32,000 nucleotides of DNA from Acaryochloris thomasi RCC1774 (GTDB taxonomy: Bacteria; Cyanobacteriota; Cyanobacteriia; Thermosynechococcales; Thermosynechococcaceae), in NCBI RefSeq assembly GCF_003231495.1, contig NZ_PQWO01000032.1, positions 7,300 through 39,299 on the forward strand. The letters are read 5' to 3'. Shown here piece by piece: positions 1 through 24,606 of the stretch (positions are counted from its first letter, which is position 1; each line of letters opens with the position of its first letter). Both the position numbers and the translations under genes were made by a program. The notes beneath the pieces are model-generated. The model was given only the letters and a program-made list of their open reading frames with translations. It was not told the DNA's origin and ran no database searches.

Positions 1-1
1 A

Positions 2-121
2 CCACCTGCCGTGAAGCCCATTGCTAAGCCCGCAGCTCAACCCAAGGCAAGGACGCCGCGCCCCACATTGGAAGATGTTATGAGACAGGAGGCAGAGCGT
101 CGTCTCGGGGAAGCGTCATAA
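2..121 (+). CDS. 3' end of a gene truncated by the window edge (tail ...EDVMRQEAERRLGEAS*)
   Basis: Frame 2 is open from the window edge to TAA at 119-121. A hairpin plus T-run follows it. No start codon is visible. Confidence 0.3.
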   Translation, partial: PPAVKPIAKPAAQPKARTPRPTLEDVMRQEAERRLGEAS

Positions 122-175
122 CTTCCTTGGCGATGTCGTTTTGTCTTCACTAGCCACACCGTAGATATATCAGCG

Positions 176-207
176 CTCTCAGGGTCATACCTGGGAGCAT
201 TTTTTTT
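176..207 (+). terminator. Intrinsic terminator-like hairpin plus T8 run
   Basis: CTCTCAGG (176-183) pairs with CCTGGGAG (190-197) with one G-U pair and a 6-nt loop. A run of eight T follows at 200-207. Confidence 0.55.
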
Positions 208-210
208 CGC

Positions 211-248
211 TTCGACAGCTTTTTGCCCCACTTGCAATAGATAGATAT
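211..248 (+). promoter_or_regulatory. Copy 1 of the conserved bipartite motif (TTCGACAGCT-N11-TTGCAATAGATAGATA)
   Basis: ACAGCT at 215-220, TTGCAA at 232-237 and TAGATAGATA at 238-247. It is near-identical to six other copies in the window and points into the plus-strand gene block. Confidence 0.6.
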
Positions 249-446
249 CACAACCAACTTGTTTGGCGCATAAGCCCAGCAGATTAGTTTTTGTTGGCAG
301 AGAGTCGGTGCGTAACCCGACTCATATTTTCAAGCCACTTAGAGCAATTGCTCAGCGATCGCTCCGAGTGGGGAGAGAAGGCCGTTGGTCTGCTAAGGCA
401 TAGCCTTCGATTGCTGGAAACACCCAAGTCAGTCGGAGGACGACCA

Positions 447-686
447 ATGGCAATTCCAGCGCACATCTGGAACAAGCACTTTCCTGAGAGTAATGCTGTG
501 GTGCCCGAGCCGCAGTATGCGATCGGCGAGGAGGTTTACCTGAAACTTTGCCCAGAGAGGAGGTTTATCGTGATTCGGAACTACATAGCCTACGAACAAC
601 CGACGTCAGCCGGTGAGCGATGGCTAGAGTTATCGAGCTGCGATCGTCCTGCTTTCTGGAAAGAGAATCAGCTCCAGCGTGTGTAG
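447..686 (+). CDS. Hypothetical small protein (79 aa)
   Basis: ORF track gives 291..686. ATG 447 follows GGAGGA with 6-nt spacing, while the 291 TTG has no RBS and its N-terminal extension does not look protein-like. A hairpin GAGTCGG/CCGACTC lies in the leader at about 301-323. Confidence 0.5.
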   Translation: MAIPAHIWNKHFPESNAVVPEPQYAIGEEVYLKLCPERRFIVIRNYIAYEQPTSAGERWLELSSCDRPAFWKENQLQRV

Positions 687-751
687 ACGATAGGAGCCTG
701 TGGTTATTCCACGGGTTCCTATGACCACCGTAATAAATATTGGAGAATGAA

Positions 752-1285
752 ATGAGTACTCAACTGATTACAGCTTTATCAACTGTCATTAACCAGCTAG
801 AGAATGGTATCCGCTATCAAGTCTCTCGTGGGCTGCTGGATATGAAGAAAATGGACAGCACAAAGTACTGCCTAACCTCCCATTTGGTCAGTGCTCTAAC
901 TGACTTTAGCAATGTCACTCTTGAGCAGAAGCTATCGGATGGCCCCATTGGTCTAATTGCTGGGAACCTGTCATGGAAGACGGCAATGCAGTTTTGGGAC
1001 GAATATCATCATCTATTGCAGCCAGGGATGGGCCTCTATGAGGTGTGGTCGTCTATTCAGTCTGCGGGCTTGACTCCTCAGGATCTAGAGGAGCTGGAGT
1101 TGCTAGGAAATCAACAGGTGAAGGAGCACTTGGGCGTACCTTCTGGGTATTACCTGGATAGCGATCGCTACGAGGTGGTGCTGAGGTACCTGACAGCATG
1201 GCGCGATCTTCTTTCAGAGAGTATTTCTCAGTCTCATGCGATCGATGGTGGCACTCAAAAGCAGCTAGCTGCTACGGCGTCTTGA
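752..1285 (+). CDS. Hypothetical protein (177 aa)
   Basis: ORF track gives 740..1285. ATG 752 follows GGAG at 742-745. No family recognised. Confidence 0.6.
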   Translation: MSTQLITALSTVINQLENGIRYQVSRGLLDMKKMDSTKYCLTSHLVSALTDFSNVTLEQKLSDGPIGLIAGNLSWKTAMQFWDEYHHLLQPGMGLYEVWSSIQSAGLTPQDLEELELLGNQQVKEHLGVPSGYYLDSDRYEVVLRYLTAWRDLLSESISQSHAIDGGTQKQLAATAS

Positions 1286-1380
1286 CTTGGTTGGAGTGAA
1301 CCTGGATAAGGCGAATCGTATTATTGCTTATCGAAAAGGAGTATTCATTCGCCTTCAACAACGTCAGCGGAGTAATTCAC

Positions 1381-1656
1381 ATGCATATTTTATTCATCAC
1401 AGAAGATAGGCAGCAGCTTGAACAATCGTTGTCTCTCGACGATAGATTCACCGATTTATTCGCCCGACACCCGCTGTCTGCTCAGGAAGTACGGTTGATT
1501 GTCAATGGACGCAAGTACAACACCTGTTGTACTTGCGTTGCGACTCCTGTGGAGGCAGCAGCTTTGCCTGAGTTGGCTGTTGCGAATCTGAGAATGAATG
1601 AGGCTGGGGAGACTGCGATCCCAACTTCCTTGGATCTAGGAGGGCTGATCTCATGA
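1381..1656 (+). CDS. Hypothetical small protein (91 aa)
   Basis: ORF track gives 1324..1656. ATG 1381 follows GGAG with 8-nt spacing. Its stop overlaps the next start (ATGA at 1653-1656). Confidence 0.5.
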   Translation: MHILFITEDRQQLEQSLSLDDRFTDLFARHPLSAQEVRLIVNGRKYNTCCTCVATPVEAAALPELAVANLRMNEAGETAIPTSLDLGGLIS

Positions 1657-1841
1657 GGCACTTGGATTTGCTTGGGAGAGTGGGTAGTGGGAAATCTGTA
1701 TGCATCAGTACCCAATTGCAAGACTCACGAAGCGACAACAGCGCACCACTGCCTTTCGGTGGTTCGGCTGCTGTTGAGGCTGCAGACCTGCCTCCGGTGG
1801 CTTTGGACGATCTGCGGGAAAAGGGGACGCTTGATGAGTGA
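1653..1841 (+). CDS. Hypothetical small protein (62 aa), translationally coupled
   Basis: It overlaps the upstream gene by ATGA and the downstream start by 8 nt (ATGAGTGA). It shares the motif VEAAxLPxxAxxxL with the preceding protein. Confidence 0.45.
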   Translation: MRHLDLLGRVGSGKSVCISTQLQDSRSDNSAPLPFGGSAAVEAADLPPVALDDLREKGTLDE

Positions 1842-2151
1842 TTTCTTCGGCATAGCATCAAGGCGATTGTTGGGTCTCGTTGAGCAAATGGCTGATGAGT
1901 CCAGTGAATCTGCTGTGGCTATTCTAAGGTCGCCAGACTTGCGAGATCGCCTTGTTTCTTCTGACGATGGCGTGGTTTTGGAGACCCAGATTAGGCCGGA
2001 TGGCATTCATCGGACTGTACTTGGTTCCGATAAGAATTTTTTCGCGAATATTGCCTCCGGTCCTGGTCGCAACACCTTCGATGGGATCGTGGCTGGTGCA
2101 TTGAGGTTGGTAAGTGAGAGCGATGGAGAAGGAGTGCGACCATGCAGATAG
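1834..2151 (+). CDS. Hypothetical protein (105 aa)
   Basis: ORF track gives 1672..2151. ATG 1834 sits in an overlap with the upstream stop and follows AAGGGGA. Its 3' end overlaps the ATG at 2142. Confidence 0.5.
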   Translation: MSDFFGIASRRLLGLVEQMADESSESAVAILRSPDLRDRLVSSDDGVVLETQIRPDGIHRTVLGSDKNFFANIASGPGRNTFDGIVAGALRLVSESDGEGVRPCR

Positions 2152-3674
2152 TGGTACAGAAAATAGGTGACAGCAGCGTTTTGGTGACACCTGACGGCCA
2201 GCCAATCCCATACGTTGATTGTGACGATTGGACGCTTCATTTGATGCCCCAGATTTTGATAAACAGTCGGGTTTCCTCCGTCTCTCTGATTAGGGCGAAT
2301 CTGAAGTTGAGGAATGATGGCGCAGGTCCATTAGGGTTGCCGCATTTTACCTTTCATAACGTCCTGCCCATCGACGTTCAGATCACTCAGCCCTTCCCTA
2401 ACGAGAGCTTTTATGTCGCTGGGAGTGTTGATCGCAAGATGGGTTGGGAGTTTCCATTGCTAGAGAATCAGACCTGGGCCGAATTGTCTTTAACTTGGGA
2501 AGTTGATCAGAATCAGCCTTGGACGATCCATCACCGCATCAGATTCAATTTGGAGCATACACAGCAGGGTCATCTCTTCTCAATGGCGAGTGCCAACACT
2601 ATGTTTGGCATCAATTCTCAAAATGCGAAGGCGATCGCGCACTTCGATGAATCATCACTGGGTCATACATTCGCGAAAAGCGATGATTCGTTTCACTGCA
2701 GATTTGATAAAAGTCACTTCCGTATTGATTTTGAGCAGACACTTGACCTCCAAAGCCATGCCTGGAGTGACGTGCCCCACCTTGAGTTGCTTGAGAATCA
2801 AACCCAGCTCCACAATATCGAGCCAGCTACAACGTTTTCGACCTATCGCAAAGAGCATCTTTCTTGTGCTTGTTTAGAGATCCCCTCTGACGTTTTGCTT
2901 GAAGCCGTAGAAGATGCGCGACAAGAGACTCATTCATTGTCAGCGGGTCAGTACCACACTTCAAAAGCAGTGCGAAAGATTTGCGACTGGTGGAACCAGA
3001 ATGCCCCGGTCGAATCCTTTCGCCATGCGGGAGGCGTCGAGATTTGGTGTCGGGTCGAAGATGGTCCTGAATATTGGTCGGCTCAGGAGGAACGACCTGA
3101 AACAGATATCAAGTGCCTCTTAAAGCTAGACCCGAACACCTGTGCCCGTTTTGGCGATCACTTTTTGATTTACTTCCTAGAGAAGCCATCGGAGAATCGC
3201 ATCGACGATAACGATACTCGCTATATCAACTATGTCGATGGAACAAGTTGCACGAATATCTGGGATGAAGTCGAATATAGCTACTTCTCTTGGCAGAGCT
3301 TGTCTGTACTTCCTACGATGTTTCCGGTTGCTTATGAGCAAGTGTTGGCTAAGGGATACAGCCTTACTTCGCCAGAGCGTTTAATTTCTCAGTACCAGAG
3401 TGGAGAGCGTCGTTTTCCGATCCTCGCGCTAAGAGGCGCTAACTTTTCTGGGATGGATTTACGAGGCATCGATTTATGGGAGAGCGATCTGCGGGGTGCC
3501 AATTTTAGTGGTGCGAACCTTGAAGGTGCATGTCTGGTGGGTTGTGATTTGCGAGGGGTAGATTTCTCGTATGCCAATCTATCGCGCACTGATCTTCGTA
3601 ATGTGTGGATTAAAGCCACGAATCTCTATGGGGCCAATCTAGAGGGGGCAGATCCTTGGCCTCCAGGTGCTTAA
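2142..3674 (+). CDS. Large protein with an unknown ~420-aa N-terminal region and a C-terminal pentapeptide-repeat domain
   Basis: The C-terminus reads ANFSGMDLRGIDLWESDLRGANFSGANLEGACLVGCDLRGVDFSYANLSRTDLRN, a classic A(D/N)LXX tandem repeat. GAAGGAG lies 7 nt before the ATG. Confidence 0.85.
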   Translation: MQIVVQKIGDSSVLVTPDGQPIPYVDCDDWTLHLMPQILINSRVSSVSLIRANLKLRNDGAGPLGLPHFTFHNVLPIDVQITQPFPNESFYVAGSVDRKMGWEFPLLENQTWAELSLTWEVDQNQPWTIHHRIRFNLEHTQQGHLFSMASANTMFGINSQNAKAIAHFDESSLGHTFAKSDDSFHCRFDKSHFRIDFEQTLDLQSHAWSDVPHLELLENQTQLHNIEPATTFSTYRKEHLSCACLEIPSDVLLEAVEDARQETHSLSAGQYHTSKAVRKICDWWNQNAPVESFRHAGGVEIWCRVEDGPEYWSAQEERPETDIKCLLKLDPNTCARFGDHFLIYFLEKPSENRIDDNDTRYINYVDGTSCTNIWDEVEYSYFSWQSLSVLPTMFPVAYEQVLAKGYSLTSPERLISQYQSGERRFPILALRGANFSGMDLRGIDLWESDLRGANFSGANLEGACLVGCDLRGVDFSYANLSRTDLRNVWIKATNLYGANLEGADPWPPGA

Positions 3675-3727
3675 GAACCATGTATTGAGATATTTGTGTC
3701 AACAACAAGTTTGGAGAATGTGAACGT

Positions 3728-4345
3728 ATGCAATCAACTAATGCCAAAGCCTCTACGCCAGTTGACGAGATCCTTCTGCCAGCTCAGGCTGCGGCGTTCC
3801 TGGGTGTGACGGAGGAGCAGTTGCACAATGCTGTGTGCCAGGGTTATCTACCTGGGGCTTGCATTGATGGTCAGTGGCGGTTTAGCAAGCGCGGGCTGAG
3901 TAAGTTCTGCTGGCAAAGAAACAATCACAACGGTTCCGCGCCCTGGCTTGAGAACTCCTGTGGTCCCTACTGGTTGGGCGATTGGGCTGAACAAAAGGCA
4001 AAAGGTGTGATCGAGGCTTATGAGGCAGGGGAAAGATACTTCCCTGGACTCTCCATAAAAGGTGGACGTTTTGATGGTCAGGATCTTAGTGGTATTGATT
4101 TTTGGGAGTCCGGCTTGAAGGGTGCAAGCTTTTCTGGATGTATTCTCAAGCAGGCCATTTTTGTTGGTGCGGATCTTACCTCAGCCGTATTCAGGAATGC
4201 AGATCTATCCGATGCAAACCTTGAGGGAGCTGTGGTTGAGGATGCTGACTTCAGTGGAGCTATCCTGAATCGGACTAACTTTGCGGTCAGCTTGATGAGT
4301 GGAGCAAAGCTAGATGGAGTCAGTATCAGCATGGTCTCCTTCTGA
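3728..4345 (+). CDS. HTH (excisionase/MerR-like) fused to a pentapeptide-repeat domain
   Basis: The N-terminus LLPAQAAAFLGVTEEQLHNAVCQGYLPGACIDGQWRFSKRGL resembles excisionase-type HTH domains. The C-terminus has GQDLSGIDFWESGLKGASFSG...ADLSDANLEGAVVEDADFSGAIL repeats. Confidence 0.8.
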   Translation: MQSTNAKASTPVDEILLPAQAAAFLGVTEEQLHNAVCQGYLPGACIDGQWRFSKRGLSKFCWQRNNHNGSAPWLENSCGPYWLGDWAEQKAKGVIEAYEAGERYFPGLSIKGGRFDGQDLSGIDFWESGLKGASFSGCILKQAIFVGADLTSAVFRNADLSDANLEGAVVEDADFSGAILNRTNFAVSLMSGAKLDGVSISMVSF

Positions 4346-4417
4346 CGGTTCGACTCTTGTGAGCAACAGTATTCACCCCGGTTCATTTTCGTTCTTTGTG
4401 TCTGGAACTGAGTTTAT

Positions 4418-5089
4418 TTGTGTAATGTAGTTGGAGCATGGCAGCTAGTGGAGTTAATCGACAGAAGCATTGCTGTGTCAGGGTCGAGTGAGATAAACCT
4501 TGAAGATGCTATATCCCTAATTAGTCTGGACAAAGAGCATATCCTCTCTGATGTAGGTAGGGGGAGGATAAAGGCAACTCGTGTGAATGGTGAATGGATG
4601 TTCGATCGTCAGGATTTATGTGTCTATCAGTACTACTACTATCCAGATTGTGATCAGTTAGAGCCATCAACTCTCTCTTTCCCGACGCCTTTGACCCCGG
4701 AGTCTGTATGGCGTGAGTACCAGCGAGGAGCGAGAGATTTCTCTTGCAGAGCAGTGAGCAACAATGCTGATTTTTCGTGTAAGTCATTGCCAGAAATTGA
4801 CTTTAATTATTCAAAGCTTGCGGGTGTTAACTTTGAAGGCTCAGACCTGAGGCAAGCCAACTTTCGCGATGCCAATATGTTTAGGGTCAACATGAGAAAT
4901 ACAAAGCTGGCTGGGGCTAGCTTTGAGGGCGCTGAACTGCGAATCGTAGACTTCTCTGGTGCAGACCTAACCAATGTTAATTTCGGTGGTTCAAAAATCG
5001 GAAAGATTCAGCTCCAAGACGCAATCATTCGGAACACCCAGTTTTTCGAGGGAATTCTGTTGACAACAGTAAAGCCAGATTATCGGTAG
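4418..5089 (+). CDS. Second HTH plus pentapeptide-repeat protein, a paralogue of 3728..4345
   Basis: ISLISLDKEHILSDVGRGRIKATRVNGEWMFDRQDL parallels the HTH segment of the neighbouring protein. The C-terminus has VNFEGSDLRQANFRDANMFRVNMRNTKLAGASFEGAELRIVDFSGADLTNVNF repeats. The start is uncertain (TTG 4418 or GTG 4448). Confidence 0.75.
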   Translation: MCNVVGAWQLVELIDRSIAVSGSSEINLEDAISLISLDKEHILSDVGRGRIKATRVNGEWMFDRQDLCVYQYYYYPDCDQLEPSTLSFPTPLTPESVWREYQRGARDFSCRAVSNNADFSCKSLPEIDFNYSKLAGVNFEGSDLRQANFRDANMFRVNMRNTKLAGASFEGAELRIVDFSGADLTNVNFGGSKIGKIQLQDAIIRNTQFFEGILLTTVKPDYR

Positions 5090-5109
5090 ATCGGTAGAGA
5101 GGAAATTCG

Positions 5110-5493
5110 ATGATTCAAGTTCCATCAGTAGAGCGGCAGATACCTCGGTACTGGTCTTCCAGTAAGCCAAAGTACCCTCTCCATGTGAGAACGGTGACTA
5201 TAACAGGGCACAGTGGTTTCATAACGGGCGTGGAGCAGTGTTTCTCAAGTGAGGGGATTGTATGGCGATACCAAATAACTTCCATTGAAGGCAGCGAAGT
5301 CATTGTTTGGGATGACAATGGAGAGAAGGTGATAGATATTGCCCCAGATTCCAATCGTGATATCTACCAGCCCTCTTCAGAATTGGTAGCTCATCTCACG
5401 TCATTTGCCGATGAGCTTGAGCAACAAGAATTTAAGCGGGAACAGGAATCAGAACAAAAGGTTGATGAGGGTTTTGGTATTGATGATGACTGA
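5110..5493 (+). CDS. Hypothetical protein with an acidic C-terminus (127 aa)
   Basis: GAGAGGAAA precedes the ATG. It is the last gene of the plus-strand block. Confidence 0.6.
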   Translation: MIQVPSVERQIPRYWSSSKPKYPLHVRTVTITGHSGFITGVEQCFSSEGIVWRYQITSIEGSEVIVWDDNGEKVIDIAPDSNRDIYQPSSELVAHLTSFADELEQQEFKREQESEQKVDEGFGIDDD

Positions 5494-5497
5494 GAGG

Positions 5498-5806
5498 TTA
5501 ACCCCCCAACCCCCAGCACACCCCCAGCATCAGCCGACACCAGAGGTGCGCCAGCCGCTGCAGCAGGTTTGGGTACTTCCCCAGTCGTTGGGTACGGACG
5601 CGATCGCCCCAGCCGAGCCAGCGATGGATGAAGCGGTGGGAGCCGGGAGCCAGCGGGAGTAGGTCGATTCCGATCAGCTCGTGGCCGTATCTACGGTAGT
5701 TCGTATGGTGGACATGCGCGTACTTATAGGTGCGTTTCCAGGGGCACAGAGCGCAGCGGTAGTTCCAGCGCTTGAGCGTTCGTTTTCTCAGTTCAACTGC
5801 CGTCAT
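5498..5806 (-). CDS. Degenerate HNH-type nuclease-like protein
   Basis: It has the first CxxC and the His-His of an HNH motif (CALCP...HVHHTNYRRYGHE...DLLPLAPGSHRFIH). The second Cys pair is replaced by Ala and Ser. Confidence 0.5.
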   Translation of the reverse strand: MTAVELRKRTLKRWNYRCALCPWKRTYKYAHVHHTNYRRYGHELIGIDLLPLAPGSHRFIHRWLGWGDRVRTQRLGKYPNLLQRLAHLWCRLMLGVCWGLGG

Positions 5807-5842
5807 AGTCTCTGTGTATCTTCTTCTTGGTACCCTGTCAGC

Positions 5843-6211
5843 ATGAGGCGAAAGATACCGCTAATGGATAAGGCGATCGCAAGTCTGTCGCTGCTGGGCG
5901 TTGTTCTGATTTTGGTTGCGGCATATCGTAATTTCTTGATCAATGGGACGCTTGCCACAATCGGCTTCCCGAGTCTGATGATGGTGGGCGTATTTTTCAC
6001 CCTGCCAACAGTTGAGCTATATCGATACCGGCAGATAAAACCACTGGGTATGTCCTTTCGGGCTGTCATGGTTCTGATCGCAGATCGTTTGTTTTCCGGT
6101 GATCAGCAGTTCGCTTCGATCTACTGGGAGATAGCCGCCGTTGCGATCGCCCTGCTGTTTGTCTTTTATTTCCCTCGGTTGTGGGGAATGGTAGCTCGTA
6201 AAGTTTATTGA
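5843..6211 (+). CDS. Small integral membrane protein (122 aa, 3-4 hydrophobic helices)
   Basis: ORF track gives 5681..6211. ATG 5843 avoids overlapping the opposite-strand HNH ORF. Hydrophobic stretches include LLGVVLILVAAY, LMMVGVFFTL and IAAVAIALLFVFYF. Confidence 0.55.
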   Translation: MRRKIPLMDKAIASLSLLGVVLILVAAYRNFLINGTLATIGFPSLMMVGVFFTLPTVELYRYRQIKPLGMSFRAVMVLIADRLFSGDQQFASIYWEIAAVAIALLFVFYFPRLWGMVARKVY

Positions 6212-6459
6212 AATTCACTGATTAACCAGGACTTGTAGCGCTCAACTAAGGCCCGGATAAAGGCCCATTCTTCATCACTGGGATCTGAGAGAACGCCCAG
6301 GTTTTGCCAGCCCCTTTCATAGCAGCGCAACATATCAAAGGGTTCCAAGGACTTCAGCTTTTCCTTATCCGCTTGCCAGCTAATAGCTTCAAGGAAAGGG
6401 AGCTGTTCTGGAATATCGATTGCGTCCATTCGTTTGATCATTTCGTGCTTTTGCTCCAT
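6205..6459 (-). CDS. Hypothetical protein (84 aa) downstream of the relaxase
   Basis: ORF track gives 6205..6567. The internal ATG 6459 lies 20 nt after the relaxase stop and avoids an 89-nt overlap with it. Confidence 0.45.
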   Translation of the reverse strand: MEQKHEMIKRMDAIDIPEQLPFLEAISWQADKEKLKSLEPFDMLRCYERGWQNLGVLSDPSDEEWAFIRALVERYKSWLISEFQ

Positions 6460-6478
6460 CTTGGCAAATTTCCTCGCA

Positions 6479-9400
6479 TCAATACTCAAACCCTTCCTCT
6501 TGCTCCATTTCATACTCATGAGCCGCAAGCTCCTTCTCCAGCCAGGGACTTTCCTGCGCCCATTCATCCAGTGTCGAATAGCTCAAGTCGCTCAACTGAT
6601 TACCCCGCGCCAGCCAGTCGTCGATCCCCAGCTTGCCCTGGTCATTCCCTGGCATCTCGGCCACCTCCACCTTGGCTCCCTGTTGCTCTAGCAGCCGACC
6701 GAACCGATGCATTGCGATGGCAACATTCCGTAGTGTCTTGGTCTTCTCCGGTGGATCTTTGTCGAAGCACAGCACCACCGTCCGGCTCTGCCAGTTGTAT
6801 TGCTTGAGATGTCCATCGAGATACCGCTGCTCATTGTCATCTTTGCTGTAGCCCCCATTGACGCCATTGAGAGCAATCGCATCAATACCCCTGGTATAGA
6901 TTGCAGCGCCCTTCTTGGCCCCTTCAGTAATCCAGACTTCCTTGGTTTCGTTCTTGATGTCATCGAGATCCTTGGCAAAGGCAAAGTGACTGCGGTGTGA
7001 GGGCAGGTTTTGTGACGCCTTTGGAATAGACTCGTACTTGCGTTCTTTCAGCTCTGGCTTGTAGTTTGCAGGCTTTTCCAGGTTCTGCACCTGACCATTT
7101 TTCAGGTAGATGGTGAAGCGATCCTTGTCCTTCTCCTCAGTGACGGGTGTATTAGGCTTGAGTTGCCCCCACGGTTCGCCATTGAACGGCCTGCCTTCAC
7201 ACCAGAGTCCGCCCGCTTCAAGATGCTCGTATCGAGCTAAGAACTTTTCTACCTGAGCTGTGGTGTATTGGGTGCCGTGGCCTGCGAATTGCCCCATCGC
7301 GTAGTTGAGTAAATGTTCCTTGGCCCCTGGCCCATCGAGAGACCAGAAATACTTCGCAGCCACTTGGGGATGGATTGATGAATCTTTGACCAGCTCCACC
7401 CACCGCTCTTTCTCGATGTAAGTGGGTCTCAGGTATTCCAGCGCTTGCAATCTCTGTGTTGTCCACACTCGTCCTGTCTTTTCTGTTGACTGCTGTGGAG
7501 CTTCGTTAGCTACTTGAGCTTCAGCCTCCAGCCTGTCCTTCTTCAGTACCGGCTTTTCAACTTGTGGCTGAGTCGGTGGCTGGGTGGGTTGCCTATCCTT
7601 CTTCAGTACTGGCTTCTCCACCACAGGTTTTGCCTTCTTCTGAGGTTTGGGTGTGACATCAATGCCCATATTCCGCATCTGCTCCGTTAATCTCTGCAGC
7701 TCCTCTCTCGACACCTCAGGATTGGACCTGAGTGTCTGAACGAGCAGAGCCAATCGCTGTACATCGGCCTGCTGCTCAATCCAGTTTTCAACGTGATCGC
7801 CTAGGCCCACAAAGACCTGCATGTGTTCGGCTATGGCATCCTGTTGCTGGGTCTCGTGAATCGCCTTAGCTAGCTCCTGCACCCCTTCAAGAGAAGGCTG
7901 CTGCCTCGTCATCTGCTCTAGGCTATGGCCCACATGGTTGAGCTTATCGGTGAGGCCCGACTCTAGCAGTGTCCCCACGTCGGCCTGCTGTTGAATTAGC
8001 TCAGCCAACTCAGCCATCTGTGGGTACTGCATCCACTGTTCCAACCTGCCGCTGACTTCAGTGATGACCTCAGCCACCTGCTCCATTGCTTGCTGTTTGG
8101 TGATGACCTCTGCCAACTGTTCGATGCCATGTTGTCCTCTGAGACGATCCATCACGCCCGAGAACTCAGCGGCCACCTCAGCAATGAGCTGTTGCTCCTG
8201 CCAGCCGTGTAATGCCTCCGCTAACTCCTGCACCTGTGGCCTGACGGTTGACGGTCCCGTGAACTCCCGAAGTAGCTCCATCACCTGAGCTTGATCGCCT
8301 GCAGCCATCGCCTCCACCATGCGCTGTTCGTTGGTCCACTGCCCCACAGCGTTAGTGATGTGATCTGCCACCCCTTTTGTGAGGCTCTGGTCAATCTGTA
8401 GCTGCAGAGCATCAAGCGTCTCTGAGATGAGGGGCAACGACTCAGCAAAGGTTTGTTCGATGTCACCTGAATGAATCACTTCAGCTAGTTCTTCTATACC
8501 CTCGAAAGTGATTCCTGATGGTCTTTGGTTCTCAACGACGCTAGCTAGCTCCTGCAGCTTTTCACCTAAGCCAGATTCAGCGATTACCTGCAGGTCCGCA
8601 TTCGTCTGAATCGCATCGGCGAGTTCAACGAGATTGTGATTCTGGCTTAGGTGCTGCAAGCGTTCTCCAAGTGCGGCACCCACCTCCAGCATGACCGCTT
8701 CAGCTTGGTTGTGTGAGATCGCATCTGCGAGTGAATCAATGGAGCTTGAGAGATCAGGTTGATGAACCTTCTCTTGAGCCAGCTCCAGTGATTTGTCGAT
8801 GGTCAGTCCTAACTTTTCTAGCGCCTGATTGATGCCCGGTAGCGTTTCCGCCAATACTTCCTGAGCATTAAAAGTATTGATGTCGTTGGCTAGTTCGTTG
8901 ATGGAGCGTTTGAGGGCTGCATCTGATTGGTCTCTAGAGACGTTGGCAGGCTCGCCGTATCCGGTAGATCGATCGTCAGTGATGAGCGACCCGTTAGCCC
9001 GTGCCGCTTCAACTCTCCCACTAAGTCTTGCAACTGCTCCATCCAGTCTTGATTGGTGCCCAGCATCGAGACGTTGTTGAGCTGCGCGTCGTTGATTTGG
9101 GTCATCAAAGCGTCGAGCCTTCCGTAAAGCTGCTTGATGCTCTGGGCTAGGTCGTCGTTCTTCTTGCCCTTCAGCGCTTCGCTCAGTGCTTCGGTGAACT
9201 CCATCAGATGCCCGTTGAGAACCACTGGCATTGTATTCATCGACTGATTGACCAATTGATGCACCTTCTTGTGTCTGGCTTCGTTGTTCTCGTTGAGCTG
9301 TTGATTGTGCTGGATCAAGAGCCGATTCTGTTGCTCGACTGACATCAACCGTCCGTTGGCTGTCTCCAACTGCCTGCTTATGGTTTGGTTCTGCTTCTCG

Positions 9401-10462
9401 ACTGCCGTCAGCCTCTCGCTCATGACTTGGTTCTGCTGCTTGATCTCGTTCACGAGTGTTAGTAGTTCTTCCATGATTGATGTCCTCTGGTTTTGTGGGT
9501 TGAACGGTTGAAGCCTTTTCTGCCGTAGTCCTTTCTATGCCCTGCTGTTCTTCACGCACAGGGATAGAGACCACGTTTTCTTGAACGATATGCAGCCTGG
9601 GATTTTGCAGGTCCACCCCCTGCGCTCTGTCGTGCCACTGCTGCTTTAATTTCTGGGGTTCTTCGAGTTCCTTGACGGGGCGGTTTTGCAGGCTAATGTG
9701 CTTTAGCTCTCGCCAGCCTGTAACGCCCTTGGCTTGGGCAATCGCTTCTATTTCCACGGTGCGCTGGGAGAAGGCCCGTAGCTGTTCTTTTGTATACCCA
9801 GTGATATCGAAGGTATCGTTTGGCTTCCAGACAATCCCGTAGCCAATCTGTTGTAGGTTGGCGGCGAGTTCATGTTGATACCGAACGCCTAAGTCACGTC
9901 GGCTATCTCGAAAGAAGCTTTCGTTCCGCAGTGCTCTCCATTTGCCATCACTGCAGTAGCTGGTGTTCATGATGATGGCGTGGGTATGGAGCTGCGGATC
10001 CATCTTGCGACTGGTGGCATGGGTGAAGGTGGCAATCGCTAACTTGCCGGTGATCTCCTTCTGGCGTTTACCTCCGGTGCGGATCTCAACGAGGGAGTGA
10101 TTCAGTTCAATTTCCTTGAGGACCGCATCAACGGCTTCTCGATGAGCCTTAATCACTCGCGTGTCATTCCAGACCAGTGCTTGCAGGCTAACTGACTTGG
10201 GCGCAGAGAACGTGAGGTCGTAACCTCCCCTGGTTTTATTCCCGGCATTGCTGACGCCGCGTAGTCTGACGCCGTTGGGCGCTCTGCCGTGGATGAACCT
10301 TCGGAAGTCTTCTGCCTCCACTGCACCCTCAAGGCAAACCTGCGCGGCAAGGTTTCCATACCAGCGTGACCCACAGGCATTTTCTTCCTGCGCGTAGTAG
10401 GAATCTTCTTGTTCGTAGTAGGAGGCTGCTGCCTCTGGTCTGACGTTGTGGGCGGTGAGCAT
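6479..10462 (-). CDS. MOBF (TrwC-type) relaxase fused to a helical repeat array and a Toprim-like C-terminal domain
   Basis: The N-terminus parallels R388 TrwC as I recall it: MLTAHNV, paired Tyr AASYYEQEDSYY, LTFSAPKSVS and the His triad FTHATSRKMDPQLHTHAIIMN (nt 9980-10021). The C-terminus EVWITEGAKKGAAIYTRGIDAIALNGVNGGY...VVLCFDKD...GIDDW resembles Toprim (DUF3854-type, from memory). No Walker A motif is recognisable. Confidence 0.9.
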   Translation of the reverse strand: MLTAHNVRPEAAASYYEQEDSYYAQEENACGSRWYGNLAAQVCLEGAVEAEDFRRFIHGRAPNGVRLRGVSNAGNKTRGGYDLTFSAPKSVSLQALVWNDTRVIKAHREAVDAVLKEIELNHSLVEIRTGGKRQKEITGKLAIATFTHATSRKMDPQLHTHAIIMNTSYCSDGKWRALRNESFFRDSRRDLGVRYQHELAANLQQIGYGIVWKPNDTFDITGYTKEQLRAFSQRTVEIEAIAQAKGVTGWRELKHISLQNRPVKELEEPQKLKQQWHDRAQGVDLQNPRLHIVQENVVSIPVREEQQGIERTTAEKASTVQPTKPEDINHGRTTNTRERDQAAEPSHEREADGSREAEPNHKQAVGDSQRTVDVSRATESALDPAQSTAQREQRSQTQEGASIGQSVDEYNASGSQRASDGVHRSTERSAEGQEERRPSPEHQAALRKARRFDDPNQRRAAQQRLDAGHQSRLDGAVARLSGRVEAARANGSLITDDRSTGYGEPANVSRDQSDAALKRSINELANDINTFNAQEVLAETLPGINQALEKLGLTIDKSLELAQEKVHQPDLSSSIDSLADAISHNQAEAVMLEVGAALGERLQHLSQNHNLVELADAIQTNADLQVIAESGLGEKLQELASVVENQRPSGITFEGIEELAEVIHSGDIEQTFAESLPLISETLDALQLQIDQSLTKGVADHITNAVGQWTNEQRMVEAMAAGDQAQVMELLREFTGPSTVRPQVQELAEALHGWQEQQLIAEVAAEFSGVMDRLRGQHGIEQLAEVITKQQAMEQVAEVITEVSGRLEQWMQYPQMAELAELIQQQADVGTLLESGLTDKLNHVGHSLEQMTRQQPSLEGVQELAKAIHETQQQDAIAEHMQVFVGLGDHVENWIEQQADVQRLALLVQTLRSNPEVSREELQRLTEQMRNMGIDVTPKPQKKAKPVVEKPVLKKDRQPTQPPTQPQVEKPVLKKDRLEAEAQVANEAPQQSTEKTGRVWTTQRLQALEYLRPTYIEKERWVELVKDSSIHPQVAAKYFWSLDGPGAKEHLLNYAMGQFAGHGTQYTTAQVEKFLARYEHLEAGGLWCEGRPFNGEPWGQLKPNTPVTEEKDKDRFTIYLKNGQVQNLEKPANYKPELKERKYESIPKASQNLPSHRSHFAFAKDLDDIKNETKEVWITEGAKKGAAIYTRGIDAIALNGVNGGYSKDDNEQRYLDGHLKQYNWQSRTVVLCFDKDPPEKTKTLRNVAIAMHRFGRLLEQQGAKVEVAEMPGNDQGKLGIDDWLARGNQLSDLSYSTLDEWAQESPWLEKELAAHEYEMEQEEGFEY
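8890..9474 (-). CDS. Embedded +1-frame ORF (194 aa, coiled-coil-like) inside the relaxase linker
   Basis: ATG 9474 follows GAGGA (9487-9483) with 8-nt spacing. The product MEELLTLVNEIKQQNQVMSERLTAVEKQNQ... looks protein-like. Third codon positions are G/C-rich in this frame and A/T-skewed in the relaxase frame. Confidence 0.4.
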   Translation of the reverse strand: MEELLTLVNEIKQQNQVMSERLTAVEKQNQTISRQLETANGRLMSVEQQNRLLIQHNQQLNENNEARHKKVHQLVNQSMNTMPVVLNGHLMEFTEALSEALKGKKNDDLAQSIKQLYGRLDALMTQINDAQLNNVSMLGTNQDWMEQLQDLVGELKRHGLTGRSSLTIDLPDTASLPTSLETNQMQPSNAPSTN

Positions 10463-10478
10463 TGAGATGAACTTTGCG

Positions 10479-10517
10479 TCTATTCATCTATTGCAAGTGG
10501 CCGAAAAAGCTGTCGAA
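10479..10517 (-). promoter_or_regulatory. Copy 2 of the bipartite motif, 28 nt upstream of the relaxase ATG
   Basis: The minus strand reads TTCGACAGCTTTTTCGGCCACTTGCAATAGATGAATAGA. TTGCAA is at 10496-10491. Confidence 0.6.
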
Positions 10518-10601
10518 GCCCCAGTTTTTTCTAACGTGCTCTGGGGCGTAATCCTTATGCAGTCTTTGTCTTACCGCCTTCCTTTCTTTTTCCGTGTTTT
10601 G

Positions 10602-10624
10602 GGCGCGGGAGCGCCGTACTGTCT
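10602..10624 (+). other. Candidate oriT nic region: hairpin GGCGC-GGGA-GCGCC followed by GTACTGTCT
   Basis: A 5-bp stem with a 4-nt loop (10602-10615) is followed directly by GTACTGTCT (10616-10624). I recall the R388 nic region as GCACC-GAAA-GGTGC-GTATTGTCT/AT. It lies next to the start of a TrwC-type relaxase gene. Confidence 0.55.
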
Positions 10625-10644
10625 GAATCCTCCGGGAAATTAAG

Positions 10645-10654
10645 TTACGCGTAA
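10645..10654. repeat. Perfect 10-bp palindrome TTACGCGTAA next to the candidate nic site
   Basis: Read directly from the sequence. It could be an accessory-protein binding site. Confidence 0.4.
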
Positions 10655-10799
10655 GTACTTCTTCCGCTCCAGGCTGCCTCCCGAATAAGCGAGAGCATTA
10701 CTCTTAGGGCTAGGGTTCCGGCCAGAGTTGACGAAAGGATACGGCTGACGAACTGTAGCCTGATCGCATAGGCCCCAGAACGTCCATGAGTTCAGCTTG

Positions 10800-11225
10800 G
10801 CGAAAGTCTTGGGTTGAGAGATGTGGCAAGGGAGCGGTAAGTCTGGGGCTGACGAATGGTGCTAACTCCCAGTAGCTCTCCTGTTGTCCTGTTCGCAAGT
10901 CTCAAGGTTAGGGCAAGGGGGCAAGACGGTTTGCGGATGTAGCCACCTCTAGAAAAGCTCTATCTCTCCGGTATGAAGTATCTGAGCGTAAGTCCTGGGG
11001 TGAGAGTTGTAGTGCTAGGGCGGGTTGGATTGGGGCGTCTGACTACTGCAGGCTCTCGTGAGTCTTGTGACACTGGCAAGAGAGTCTATCTGAAAGCGCT
11101 GAGGTTAAGGGTGTGCTTTGGAGCCGAATCAAGAGCTGTACAGCAGCTCCGTAGCCGCGATCTCCCTGTTTTGAACGGTCTGATTGTAGGTCTTGGGATT
11201 GGGGCTGTGGTAAGTGGTCTGTATC
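10800..11225. repeat. Non-coding region with at least six degenerate direct repeats (core AAGTCYTGGGG..TGAGAG..TGT)
   Basis: Units start near 10803, 10837, 10897, 10988, 11060 and 11187. CTGACGAA also recurs at about 10745 and 10849. ORFs here lack RBS and protein-like composition. Confidence 0.5.
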
Positions 11226-11418
11226 GAAAGACCTAAACAATTGCAATTTCACCCCGTAACGCCGACTTCTTCTCCTGAAACTTCTCTTTCGTGAGTCTTG
11301 GAGGTGCTGTTGCGATAAAGGACTCGTAACGATAGTGATGAAGTAATGTAAACAGCTTTGTAACCCATGAGGCGTAGTAGATAGGAAGCCTTTCAATGGC
11401 ACCAGATTTCACCTTAAT

Positions 11419-11452
11419 AACAGCTATTTTTGCGACTTGCAATAGATATATA
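11419..11452 (+). promoter_or_regulatory. Copy 3 of the bipartite motif
   Basis: AACAGCTATTTTTGCGACTTGCAATAGATATATA. TTGCAA is at 11437-11442, 33 nt before ATG 11476, which has an AGGAG RBS. Confidence 0.6.
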
Positions 11453-11475
11453 ACCGCGTAAATAGGAGTAGCTCG

Positions 11476-11742
11476 ATGACAGAGTTAAGACCTCACACAA
11501 CCCTCTTATTGTTAGAGCTTATATGGGAAGGAACCTACATACGACCATCCGCTCAACGTGATTGGGTAGAGCAGAACTTTGAACGTCTTCAACTGCTGCT
11601 TGAGAAGCAGGCTTACACCAAGGTCTGTGAACAATTTGCTGATGAGATTCAAATCAGTCCCGCAACGCTGTCCAAGCATTACAAAGCAACGAAGAAAAAT
11701 AAACGCTGGCAGCGAGGAAAACCTCGTCGCCAGGATAGATAG
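11476..11742 (+). CDS. Small basic protein with an HTH-like segment (88 aa), paralogue of 11814..12233
   Basis: It shares WVE(Q/K)xF..LQ...EKQ.....EI..SP.TL.KHY.A.KK with the next gene. AGGAG RBS present. Confidence 0.65.
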   Translation: MTELRPHTTLLLLELIWEGTYIRPSAQRDWVEQNFERLQLLLEKQAYTKVCEQFADEIQISPATLSKHYKATKKNKRWQRGKPRRQDR

Positions 11743-11813
11743 CTCGGCACGCTCAACAGTACTTGTTCGCCTATATCTAGGCAAAGGGTCATATCGTTAT
11801 CTGGAGTAATACC

Positions 11814-12233
11814 GTGACTGATTTCAAGAAAATACAAGACCTCCTAGAAGAACTGCATGACGAAGGGGATCATATCCCTGAGCGTTCATCGATTCATCAT
11901 CAGTGGGTAGAGAAGCACTTCGCTCTCCTTCAAGACATGATTGAGAAGCAGAGACACCCGCTCAAAAAAATAACGGAAAAATTAAAGGCAGAGATCACTC
12001 TAAGCCCTCAAACACTGCAGAAACATTACCAAGCCGTTAAGAAGCTCAAGCTTGCGGAAGCCAGACGTGCAAAGAAAAATCAGACTACTGAAGCTGCCAC
12101 CTCTGCTGCCGTTTGCGATCGCAGAGGTGGCAGCACTAAACAATCTCGGGCAAGGGTAAAACCTCCAGAGGTGGACTTGTCGAAGATCAGTCCACCGCCT
12201 CAATTAGTACATGCAGAAATTGTAGAGGATTAA
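11814..12233 (+). CDS. Paralogous HTH-like protein with a basic C-terminal extension (139 aa)
   Basis: GTG start follows GGAG with 7-nt spacing. It shows paralogy to 11476..11742. Confidence 0.65.
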   Translation: MTDFKKIQDLLEELHDEGDHIPERSSIHHQWVEKHFALLQDMIEKQRHPLKKITEKLKAEITLSPQTLQKHYQAVKKLKLAEARRAKKNQTTEAATSAAVCDRRGGSTKQSRARVKPPEVDLSKISPPPQLVHAEIVED

Positions 12234-13633: not shown

Positions 13634-14494
13634 CTAGGCCGCTACAGCAACCGGCTGCAGTGCTGCAGCTTCCACTGCTGCGATGATTTCCTTCGCCGCC
13701 TTCTGAATGCGAGAGCCGGATTCCTTGAGCTGTGCGATCGCATCGTCGGTTCCGCTCATCCAGTCGCTAACGTAGGCAAAACTATAGTCACCGGAATCGA
13801 GGTCCAGGGCATTGAGGACCACGAAGGCGACTGATTCAGCCTCTAGCTCTAGAACAGACCGCTCGTTATGCATCCGGTAGTCTTGGGCAGAATGCATCAA
13901 CGCATGACCTAGCTCGTGGGCCATTGTTTTCGCTTGGTGCAACGGCGATAGCAGGGGGTTAATGGTGATTTCAATGCCTCCTGGTGCAAAGTAGCACTGA
14001 CCGTTAGGACCAGTAGAGTTAAACTGAGTCTTGAAGACCTTGCTATGAGCAAAGTCTCGGAGGGCGTTAAACAGTCCCTGATCGTCTCCTTGTATTGGGT
14101 TGCAGATATCGGGTAACTCTTCCCCATCTGTTTGGGAGATATCGAAGACCGTTGCCGTCTTAAATCCTGAGATGATCCGCTTTGAGTCGCCGCTCTCTTG
14201 GTCTTCAATCTTTCGGGTTACTGGAGCAAATATGGTGATGCCCTTCTCTCCCTTGCGGACCTGTCGGCCCATCTTCTGCCAGACGCGATAGCCTGCCACT
14301 CTAGACGCTTCAGGCATTTGCTCACGGATCATGACGATATTTCGGAACGAGTACTGATTAAAGCGGCTCTGGAAGGATAGATACTCCTGCCAGTCGCCGG
14401 ACGTTGCTAGGGCTGCAATACCGGCTTCGAGCTTGGCGAGGGCTTCGGTCTGCTTTTGCTCGGCGGCCGCTTTGTTGGCTTTGAATTTTGTCAT
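13634..14494 (-). CDS. ardC: ArdC-like antirestriction protein (ssDNA-binding N-domain plus HExxH metalloprotease domain)
   Basis: YSFRNIVMI...GYRVWQKMGRQVRKGEKGITIF is the typical ArdC/DUF1738 N-domain signature. MAHELGHALMH is a zincin HExxH motif. A GGAG RBS lies inside the conserved intercistronic module. Confidence 0.8.
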   Translation of the reverse strand: MTKFKANKAAAEQKQTEALAKLEAGIAALATSGDWQEYLSFQSRFNQYSFRNIVMIREQMPEASRVAGYRVWQKMGRQVRKGEKGITIFAPVTRKIEDQESGDSKRIISGFKTATVFDISQTDGEELPDICNPIQGDDQGLFNALRDFAHSKVFKTQFNSTGPNGQCYFAPGGIEITINPLLSPLHQAKTMAHELGHALMHSAQDYRMHNERSVLELEAESVAFVVLNALDLDSGDYSFAYVSDWMSGTDDAIAQLKESGSRIQKAAKEIIAAVEAAALQPVAVAA

Positions 14495-16024: not shown

Positions 16025-16372
16025 GTGAAACTGCCAAAACTGTTGCCATTCGGTGCAACCGTATTCCTGATCACCACTCGCACATCCTGGGCAGACAACA
16101 GCCTGGGTAGTTGCATCGTATCGGTGCTGTGTAGCGGGATCGCTTTCCTATATCTCGTATCAGCCTTTCAGCCCAAAGCTCTCTACTTCAATACCCGGTT
16201 TTTCGCGTTCTATTTCATCTCGCTAGCGTATCTGCTGGTGGAAGTTGCGATCGCACAATTTGATTCAGACCCCTATCAGGTGTTGTTTGCTGCCGCTGTC
16301 ACAGGGGTAGCGATGGTATCAGCGCTATTGGTTGAGCTGTTTTTCTTCATGAGGCAAAAGAAATGGATTTGA
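16025..16372 (+). CDS. Small integral membrane protein (115 aa)
   Basis: There are about four hydrophobic segments. The start is GTG with no clear RBS. Its stop overlaps the AAA+ gene start by 10 nt (ATGGATTTGA). Confidence 0.5.
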   Translation: MKLPKLLPFGATVFLITTRTSWADNSLGSCIVSVLCSGIAFLYLVSAFQPKALYFNTRFFAFYFISLAYLLVEVAIAQFDSDPYQVLFAAAVTGVAMVSALLVELFFFMRQKKWI

Positions 16373-23332: not shown

Positions 23333-23497
23333 TCAAGCTTCAGGTTTTCCCCTCTCCTGTGCCCTCTCCTGCGCTGCCACAGCCCTCGCCTCAGCATTCC
23401 TCTGGTTCCACTGCTGTCGGGTTTCGTCGGGGTTGGTGGACTTGGGTGGTGCAAATGTTCGGTGGCTGTAGTTGCCTCTGCCTTCTTTAGCTTTCAT
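23333..23497 (-). CDS. Possible small basic protein (54 aa) coupled to the kinase stop
   Basis: ATG 23497 overlaps the kinase stop codon region (ATGAAAGCTAA). No family recognised. Confidence 0.3.
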   Translation of the reverse strand: MKAKEGRGNYSHRTFAPPKSTNPDETRQQWNQRNAEARAVAAQERAQERGKPEA

Positions 23498-24599: not shown

Positions 24600-24606
24600 G
24601 CTTTTT

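Follow-up and report, generated by a model that had tools for sequence, protein, structure and literature searches.

What might a cyanobacterial plasmid do with three pentapeptide-repeat proteins (PRPs) encoded side by side, two of them joined to a putative DNA-binding domain? The question is raised by a 32,000-nucleotide stretch of the Acaryochloris thomasi RCC1774 genome (RefSeq assembly GCF_003231495.1, contig NZ_PQWO01000032.1, positions 7,300 to 39,299 of the forward strand), hereafter referred to as the window and numbered from its first letter, in which three consecutive and co-directional open reading frames (ORFs) on the + strand are genuine PRP genes. Two of the encoded proteins, ORF2 and ORF3, are predicted to combine a PRP module with an N-terminal winged helix-turn-helix (wHTH) domain, an architecture referred to below as HTH-PRP, and the third, ORF1, combines it with a member of a plasmid-borne protein family. 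We favour, without yet holding it to be probable, an interpretation in which the PRP is a portable protein-docking module carried by plasmid DNA-binding regulators or adaptors.

Three adjacent genes with a common pentapeptide-repeat module

The genes lie at 2142-3674 (ORF1, 510 amino acids (aa)), 3728-4345 (ORF2, 205 aa) and 4418-5089 (ORF3, 223 aa, with a TTG start), and their common module, first pointed out in an initial annotation made from the sequence alone, was readily recovered by profile searches. PRPs were defined here by at least 8 contiguous A(D/N)LXX pentapeptides together with a score above the Pfam gathering threshold. Scores against Pentapeptide (PF00805, cut-off 20.2 bits) were 99.3, 65.0 and 60.9 bits for ORF1, ORF2 and ORF3 (E-values 7.5e-29, 4.2e-18 and 8.3e-17), and the three proteins hold 16, 20 and ~21 pentapeptides in unbroken register, corresponding to 4, 5 and ~5 coils. 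In ORF1, the module follows an N-terminal domain at residues 1-405 (2142-3356) and spans residues 410-510 (3369-3674), with a cap helix (ERLISQYQSGERRF) ahead of the repeats. In ORF2, the wHTH domain and a linker precede a cap helix at residues 86-99 (3983-4024), from which the repeats (4025-4342) run to the C-terminus, and in ORF3 a divergent wHTH domain and a linker are followed by the cap WREYQRGARDF (from ~4703), the repeats and a short C-terminal tail. The ORF1 tail is 45% identical to residues 94-180 of ORF2 over 87 residues, and ORF2 and ORF3 share 28% identity over 186 aa, in an alignment that begins within the N-terminal domain.

Directly before the repeats, the three-way alignment displays a Y-x-x-G-x-R-x-F motif in which Y, G, R and F are invariant, and which the initial annotation had noted as common to the three genes. 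In NCBIfam, ORF1, ORF2 and ORF3 all align best to the HetL and Alr5209 models, from model positions 2-4 onwards, i.e. from the motif, which in the ORF2 model forms part of the helix capping the N-terminal end of the beta-helix. Since the motif thus coincides with the start of the HetL and Alr5209 models and with the cap helix, it marks where the PRP domain begins and points to no special function. We accordingly rejected it as a cluster-specific signature, as it is the generic cap at the N-terminal end of PRPs from cyanobacteria, HetL and Alr5209 among them.

An AlphaFold model of ORF2 (mean predicted local distance difference test score (pLDDT) of 81.6) displays a quadrilateral right-handed beta-helix with a strand at every fifth residue and pLDDT >90 across residues 90-200. 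Foldseek searches with this model returned designed solenoid proteins and cyanobacterial PRPs at the top, the best natural matches being Rfr23, HetL, Rfr32 and Np275/276, with a probability of 1.00 for Rfr23, HetL and Np275. The modelled beta-helix reaches the last residue and ends on a beta-strand, with neither C-terminal helix nor cap. In this it resembles Np275, another short PRP, which consists of four coils with an N-terminal capping helix and an open C-terminal end (PMC8145042). The tail of ORF1 was poorly modelled, as unrelated C-terminal extensions were aligned beneath the PRP. Unlike HetL, Alr5209, Np275, Rfr23 and Rfr32, which are stand-alone and mostly chromosomal proteins, the module is here plasmid-borne and fused to a wHTH domain or to a 405-aa protein, and ORF1-ORF3 score far below the equivalog cut-offs of HetL (46-61 vs 260 bits) and Alr5209 (48-62 vs 125 bits).

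Predicted winged-helix domains in ORF2 and ORF3

The excisionase/MerR-type helix-turn-helix (HTH) domains initially assigned to two of the genes appear to be correctly identified as winged helices, more firmly so in ORF2 than in ORF3. In ORF2, the domain occupies residues 15-66 (3770-3925), where a match to Pfam HTH_17 (PF12728; 24.3 bits, E-value 3.8e-5, against a gathering score of 27) coincides with a modelled winged-helix topology of strand (15-16), two helices (18-25 and 29-37), a beta-hairpin wing (44-46 and 49-53) and a further helix (54-66), with block-mean pLDDT of 69-81. The linker that follows (residues 67-85) is disordered in the model, with pLDDT <50 at 75-84; a flexible linker of ~20 residues is predicted to connect the wHTH domain and the PRP module in both ORF2 and ORF3. 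Two relatives of ORF2 score above the HTH_17 cut-off, namely the protein encoded by plasmid pMB03 (27.5 bits) and P0007 (27.3 bits). The N-terminus of ORF2 also weakly matches a PHROG excisionase family (E-value 5.9e-4) and the HTH protein of the MADS system, and a PDB sequence search with the HTH profile returned no significant match, the mycobacteriophage excisionase Xis Gp37 being marginal (E-value 1.2). In ORF3, the putative divergent wHTH domain lies at residues 29-72 (4502-4633) and was identified by an ORF2-family HTH profile built without ORF3 (20.7 bits, E-value 1.5e-8 in a single comparison).

The same HTH subtype is also found ahead of C-terminal regions other than PRPs. P0007, a 185-aa protein from a 601-nucleotide ENA contig, carries an HTH domain 88% identical to that of ORF2 on a non-PRP C-terminus, an architecture that stems either from domain shuffling or from the short contig being chimeric or frameshifted. 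A scan of JGI metagenomes with an HTH-only profile identified 17 relatives, none of them with a PRP tail; the tails are alike in all 16 complete loci (L103 is cut off), and the two that were scanned (L097 and L107) match PTS-EIIA_2 regulatory domains. Because it occurs on these other C-terminal partners, we suggest that the subtype provides two-domain regulators with their DNA-binding head. ORF2 and ORF3 would share with two-domain regulators such as the HTH_17 + PTS-EIIA_2 proteins a putative N-terminal HTH_17 with a conserved G-x-W-R-F wing motif, followed by a non-DNA-binding C-terminal domain, a topology also seen in the ORF2 model; they differ from them in that the C-terminal domain is a PRP beta-helix, placed in the ORF2 model after a disordered linker.

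ORF1 joins a plasmid-borne family to the module

Initially described as a region of ~420 aa that could not be assigned, the N-terminal part of ORF1 is closer to 405 aa and does have relatives. A tblastn search of PLSDB with ORF1 residues 1-419 identified 104 plasmid records, including 92 from Pseudomonas (large megaplasmids and P. syringae plasmids) and 8 from Acaryochloris, the others originating from Azonexus, Azospira, Burkholderia and Stutzerimonas; Ralstonia is also named among the hosts of the family. All of these matches are annotated as "hypothetical protein". Coverage and identity reached 96% and 31-37% for Acaryochloris plasmids, and 81-94% and 24-26% for Pseudomonas ones. A profile search grouped the relatives into 24 clusters (E-values 1e-124 to 1e-170), with homology running from end to end, 25 invariant columns and the motifs QPxPN, GW, WW, RV.D...YW...P and F(P).A. 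The family ends at about ORF1 residue 400, and the homologue on A. marina pREB3 is a stand-alone protein of 408 aa, whose gene precedes one encoding a protein of 697 aa that contains sigma-70 region 2. Having considered the N-terminus of ORF1 as a novel orphan, we rejected this possibility, the plasmid family being recognisable by sequence.

Residues 1-405 constitute a complete member of a plasmid-borne family that is weakly related to DUF6012. One relative, P0138, passes the DUF6012 Pfam threshold (26.9 vs 25 bits) and five more match weakly; ORF1 itself matches neither DUF6012 nor any other Pfam family across its N-terminal region. The structural model of this domain is fair, with most blocks at pLDDT ~70-90 and many at 80-95. 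A fold search with the ORF1 model returned nothing below an E-value of 0.01 in PDB or BFVD, and a PDB sequence search with the N-domain profile gave no significant match.

At the position occupied by the PRP in ORF1, around half of the family members end in a Cys-rich extension (60-100 residues, CxxCG...CGDH) with a weak resemblance to the zinc ribbon of the restriction-alleviation protein Lar. Its consensus, PEGFKPCxxCGG...TEDPTG...LLKCGDH, is displayed by P0123, P0124, P0126, P0132, P0134-P0137, P0139, P0141, P0143 and the L005 gene at 8001-9578, and the best score against Lar is 22.7 bits for a cut-off of 28.6. In Azonexus, the family member has as neighbours a NinX gene and a genuine gene of the Lar family (38.5 bits). 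Because relatives either stand alone or bear a Lar-like zinc ribbon in place of the PRP of ORF1, the family has at its C-terminus a slot for interchangeable add-on modules. The PRP tail itself is restricted to ORF1 and the 90%-identical P0121.

Across all proteins compared, BLAST searches with ORF1 residues 405-510 placed the HTH-PRP family first, at 42-45% identity and aligned from the cap helix, with generic PRPs behind. The fusion is found in two clusters at 90% identity: P0121 (90%) has it, and the next relative, P0122 (46%), does not. ORF1 is thus a young fusion between a plasmid-family gene and a PRP half captured from an HTH-PRP gene, as indicated by the HTH-PRP proteins being its best BLAST matches, cap helix included.

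A small, plasmid-restricted family under purifying selection

A word-indexed search of 5.8 billion proteins with ORF2 yielded 144 matches, among which, besides the protein from the window itself, P0002-P0006 alone cover 84-100% of the query. Two of these five have a source name, both Acaryochloris and one labelled as a plasmid. In total, full-length HTH-PRP relatives form about six clusters at 90% identity, with orthologues 54-68% identical to ORF2, and near-full-length tblastn matches in PLSDB were obtained on four records, all from Acaryochloris: pMB01, pMB03, S15 unnamed8 and S15 unnamed10. Two further searches were less informative: a scan of GTDB genomes with the full-length alignment relied on two search patterns, one of them a generic PRP peptide, and all 80 loci kept matched mainly or only the repeats and thus say nothing about chromosomal HTH-PRPs, and a representative-protein search with the full-length profile was swamped by giant multi-repeat PRPs, leaving one family representative (P0171) in the top 150. 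These results point to a small family restricted to one lineage and to plasmids, with every relative of known replicon located on an Acaryochloris plasmid. This is not the picture expected of common chromosomal housekeeping paralogues, which the initial annotation had named as the observation that would undermine its proposal. Our literature search found no description of an HTH-PRP fusion, the public annotation being "pentapeptide repeat-containing protein", and an article on Acaryochloris plasmids (PMC9324425) does not mention pentapeptide repeats.

The fused and tandem arrangement is maintained beyond this window. A 2.2-kb contig (L089) reproduces the gene order of the window, with an ORF1 fusion ahead of an ORF2 homologue, at ~90% aa identity. 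Synonymous-only codons outnumber aa-changing ones between the two loci in ORF1 (93:51), in its PRP part (26:13) and in ORF2 (55:17); ORF1, including its PRP, and ORF2 are thus under purifying selection. In L089, the truncated gene that precedes the ORF1 homologue (2-127) ends in AAQRLLEAYAGGARDFSGGDHDSE and a stop codon, i.e. with the PRP cap motif and a near-immediate stop, and may be a relic of a further PRP fusion; the upstream ORF of the window (1672-2151) ends otherwise.

A second locus (L090) carries an HTH-PRP gene of the pMB03 type directly upstream of one of the ORF2 type (P0002). The nearest full-length relative of ORF3 is the pMB03 protein (30% identity), and, because L090 has the pMB03-type gene upstream, tandem pairs of the two HTH-PRP subtypes recur in either order. 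In L090, a frameshift divides the pMB03-type gene (75-648; 76-89% identity to the pMB03 protein) into separate HTH and PRP ORFs, so that the gene may be a pseudogene or the result of misassembly of this short Logan contig.

On the Acaryochloris plasmids, HTH-PRP genes are found in a conserved unidirectional block that consists of a YlqD-family gene, several hypothetical genes and a gene for a ~1000-aa protein before the HTH-PRP gene. In pMB03 and S15 unnamed10, this block begins at an intergenic region divergent from mobF, with the HTH-PRP gene 6-10 kb away. Two side observations were made in these loci. First, a sigma-70-family gene (~275 aa) lies convergent to the HTH-PRP gene, 0.2-2.8 kb downstream, in all four Acaryochloris loci (on the - strand at L002 12689-13513, L006 12369-13193, L007 11449-12273 and L008 9785-10618), often followed by HU and AbrB genes; no sigma-factor family was matched among the window ORFs scanned. 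Second, in pMB01 of Acaryochloris sp. 'Moss Beach', a full-length gyrB (L006 9846-11786) lies directly downstream of the ORF2-type HTH-PRP gene. The encoded GyrB has HATPase_c, DNA_gyraseB, Toprim and GyrB_C domains, and its best plasmid matches are Firmicutes-type at ~58-60% identity. No other Acaryochloris plasmid matched it at E<=1e-50, and in sister plasmids the gyrB slot holds a gene for a 455-aa hypothetical protein or other cargo, or is empty.

A putative docking module on plasmid regulators

How could one module serve both a DNA-binding head and an unrelated plasmid protein? In the interpretation that we favour, ORF2 and ORF3 would act much as one-component systems do, as regulators or adaptors that bind DNA at specific sites. 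Their wHTH domain would read plasmid DNA, and their PRP helix would offer a surface for docking or oligomerisation with other proteins, as it does in HetL, which binds HetR directly, in SopA and NleL, and in other non-gyrase PRPs. The PRP would then bind a partner or pair ORF2 with ORF3, possibly via open C-terminal helix ends, and the common module would recruit ORF1 to that partner or complex. The likely role for such an assembly would be in plasmid gene regulation, establishment or maintenance.

This portable docking module is favoured because the PRP moves between unrelated N-terminal partners (a wHTH domain and a plasmid-family protein), because the slot that it fills in ORF1 holds other small add-on domains in relatives, because this HTH subtype is found elsewhere at the head of two-domain regulators, and because PRP domains of similar size occur in multidomain proteins. 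SopA and NleL have PRP domains of 4-5.5 coils beside their catalytic domains, and that of SopA has been suggested to act in substrate recognition (PMC8145042). Together with HglK, these proteins illustrate the fusion of a PRP of 4-5.5 coils to another functional domain, but the partners there are a HECT-like E3 ligase or a membrane domain, in secreted effectors or membrane proteins rather than DNA binders, and the PRP of SopA and NleL is N-terminal. HetL has been described as forming a system with HetR and PatS (PMC7476756). Multidomain PRPs and two-domain HTH_17 regulators are already known kinds of protein, and PRPs of varied architecture are commonplace in cyanobacteria; it is the combination as HTH-PRP that is rare.

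Several observations weigh against this interpretation. The HTH_17 score of ORF2 falls short of the Pfam cut-off, and ORF3 has no Pfam HTH match, so that its assignment relies on the profile match. In and around the cluster (1-6600), operator-like repeats amounted to short, chance-level matches and provided no operator candidate. The surroundings of the cluster differ between the window and the Acaryochloris plasmids, which makes gene context little informative. Finally, the docking role of the module is drawn by likeness to a few characterised PRPs, in a family that is among the most abundant in cyanobacteria and whose functions are almost entirely unknown (PMC8145042).

The cluster within a mobilisable plasmid

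Upstream of ORF1, four small ORFs (291-686, 740-1285, 1324-1656 and 1672-2151, all on the + strand) lie in the same direction, the last running 10 nucleotides into the start of ORF1. No convincing terminator was seen between them and ORF1, with which they probably share a transcription unit; a promoter and terminator scan gave counts at or below the shuffled expectation. The four ORFs matched no family in Pfam, NCBIfam, PHROG or PADLOC and had no homologue in the Acaryochloris loci compared. Downstream of ORF3, an ORF of 127 aa (5110-5493, +), likewise without a family in these four databases, is the final gene of the + strand block before a convergent relaxase gene.

This gene (6479-10462, -) encodes a MOBF relaxase with Pfam TrwC (E-value 4.4e-72) and DUF3854 (E-value 1.1e-23) domains at residues 11-281 and 1173-1286, separated by a repetitive, low-complexity, Q/E/A-rich middle of ~850 residues; an ORF of 194 aa (8890-9474, -) sits inside this middle region in a different frame. 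Its top tblastn matches are annotated as MobF relaxases, the best from Xanthomonas and Moraxella at 37-41% identity. The element had first been described as conjugative: its relaxase shows it to be mobilisable, but no mating-pair-formation genes were found in the window, and it is better described as a mobilisable, relaxase-bearing plasmid. Upstream of the relaxase gene, a 38-nucleotide inverted repeat (10476-10513 and 11420-11457, 79% complementary, arms 906 nucleotides apart) flanks a small ORF (11043-11402, -), and a 34-nucleotide direct repeat occurs three times (10806, 10992 and 11190), making this region a candidate origin of transfer (oriT) or regulatory region.

Among the remaining genes, an ArdC-N and IrrE/M78 peptidase fusion of anti-restriction type (13634-14494, -) lies ~3 kb from the intergenic region upstream of the relaxase. 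An AAA ATPase (16363-17826, +) matches the PADLOC IetA models (E-value 2.6e-16) and is followed by an ORF of 717 aa (18356-20509, +) without a family match that could be an IetS-like partner, in which case the pair may constitute a plasmid-borne defence system. Two adjacent DUF6876 paralogues (26482-26856 and 26933-27310, -; E-values 5e-27 and 3.4e-41) are located in a minus-strand run of small ORFs (~24.9-28.2 kb) whose other members have no family. A FolD-like (tetrahydrofolate dehydrogenase/cyclohydrolase) gene with a weak catalytic-domain match (20511-21698, -) and a Ser/Thr protein kinase gene (23487-24719, -) represent cargo.

At the nucleotide level, megablast of window positions 1-12000 against PLSDB returned no match. 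Gene sharing between the window and the Acaryochloris loci was limited to the PRPs and the ORF1 N-domain, along with a weak relaxase match to L007.

Alternative functions of the fusion

A function in DNA mimicry, topoisomerase modulation or anti-defence had been proposed for the cluster at the outset, and none of the three received direct support here. The anti-defence version, which we consider unlikely, holds that these proteins are expressed upon entry into a recipient, where the PRP or the ORF1 N-domain would block a DNA-targeting defence of the host. A plasmid-only known distribution would be in line with this possibility, as would the Lar-like zinc ribbon on about half of the ORF1 N-domain family, the Azonexus member next to Lar-family and NinX genes, and the ArdC-N/M78 and two DUF6876 genes of the window. 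The unidirectional blocks diverging from mobF in pMB03 and S15 unnamed10 also resemble a leading region, and such regions are enriched in anti-defence genes (PMC11541004). The cluster itself, however, lacks any Pfam or NCBIfam match to an anti-restriction family, and the Lar-like matches are all sub-threshold. PADLOC, which covers defence rather than anti-defence families, gave a weak mad1 HTH match for ORF2 (E-value 0.0037) and none for ORF1 or ORF3. The modules are also less acidic than the DNA mimics ArdA and Ocr, with near-neutral net charges of -2, -6 and +1 (a sequence-level proxy) where proteins of that type have a strongly acidic surface. Among the articles listed on leading regions and anti-defence, none contained the term "pentapeptide repeat".

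The position of the cluster would also speak against early expression in a recipient. In R388, from which the orientation is taken, the genes that diverge from the relaxase operon across oriT reach the recipient first. The two Acaryochloris relatives conform to this arrangement, whereas the cluster in the window lies downstream of the relaxase gene and convergent with it; by analogy, it would enter the recipient late and would not be part of the predicted leading region.

It is quite unlikely, in our view, that the modules are directed at gyrase or another topoisomerase in the manner of Qnr and MfpA, with the wHTH domain tethering them to plasmid DNA for local supercoiling modulation or gyrase protection. 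The possibility arises since most PRPs whose biochemical target is known bind gyrase, a precedent being MfpA, which mimics the T-segment on GyrB (PMC7980463). The candidate family indeed shares with Qnr, MfpA, AlbG and EfsQnr the PRP fold, and with Qnr a location on plasmids; MfpA, QnrB1, AlbG and EfsQnr are among the Foldseek matches of the ORF2 model, and one relative, that of pMB01, stands immediately upstream of a full-length plasmid gyrB. This adjacency, however, is a single case, with no gyrB in the window, and the Foldseek matches to MfpA, QnrB1 and AlbG reflect a common fold and rank under designed solenoids and cyanobacterial PRPs. By sequence, ORF1-ORF3 do not belong with the Qnr and MfpA NCBIfam models, against which they score 17-36 bits for cut-offs of 240-500. 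AlbG has eight coils and a C-terminal helix that forms a functional dimer (PMC8145042), whereas the modules described here have 4, 5 and ~5 coils, fewer than the ~8 or more of an elongated, DNA-like rod, and no loop insertions; the ORF2 model lacks a C-terminal dimerisation helix, and the charges given above are close to neutral. Conversely, the DNA-binding domain added in ORF2 and ORF3 is absent from Qnr, MfpA, AlbG and EfsQnr.

An extension that combines both ideas, and which we also regard as rather improbable, casts the HTH-PRP proteins as plasmid establishment factors. The wHTH domain would anchor the PRP at specific plasmid sites, where it would recruit or shield a host DNA enzyme, either gyrase, as hinted at by the gyrB gene of pMB01, or a restriction or defence nuclease, and ORF1 would add a Lar-associated, anti-restriction-like domain at the same target.

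A more sceptical account, to which we assign a low probability, is that the fusions are a neutral by-product of PRP duplication and domain shuffling on a plasmid, without a specific joint function. PRPs are extremely common, with 157,134 representative proteins matching the PRP profile in the representative-protein search, the ORF1 fusion is young, and L090 carries a frameshifted copy. Against this stand the purifying selection seen in ORF2 and in ORF1, PRP part included, the conservation of the ORF2 family at 54-68% identity across several plasmids, and the recurrence of tandem pairing in L089 and L090. Lastly, that the proteins are excisionases or recombination directionality factors, with HTH_17 acting alongside a site-specific recombinase and the PRP as an accessory tail, is highly improbable: HTH_17 does include many excisionases, and the N-terminus of ORF2 gave the weak PHROG and marginal Xis Gp37 matches noted above, but no integrase or recombinase domain was found in the window ORFs scanned (~7 kb of the 39.3-kb source contig lie outside the window), the four Acaryochloris HTH-PRP loci have no annotated recombinase other than insertion sequence (IS) transposases, the element is not integrated but a plasmid with its own relaxase gene, and relatives of the HTH subtype head two-domain regulators.

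Implications for plasmid-encoded PRPs

The occurrence of one PRP module both on a DNA-binding head and on an unrelated plasmid protein amounts to a natural experiment on a portable interaction surface. The HTH-PRP fusion also provides a handle on PRP function, as the DNA-binding head can be located and the partner of the module traced. The ORF1 N-domain, in turn, ties cyanobacterial plasmids to Pseudomonas megaplasmids, and the Lar-like ribbon carried by its relatives is a lead on a plasmid backbone gene. If the docking interpretation is true, the practical gain would be modest. A role in gyrase modulation or anti-defence, on the other hand, would represent a new mechanism of plasmid establishment, and if HTH-PRPs do act as establishment factors anchored at plasmid sites, they would be the first DNA-tethered PRPs and provide the first function for a PRP from a cyanobacterial plasmid.

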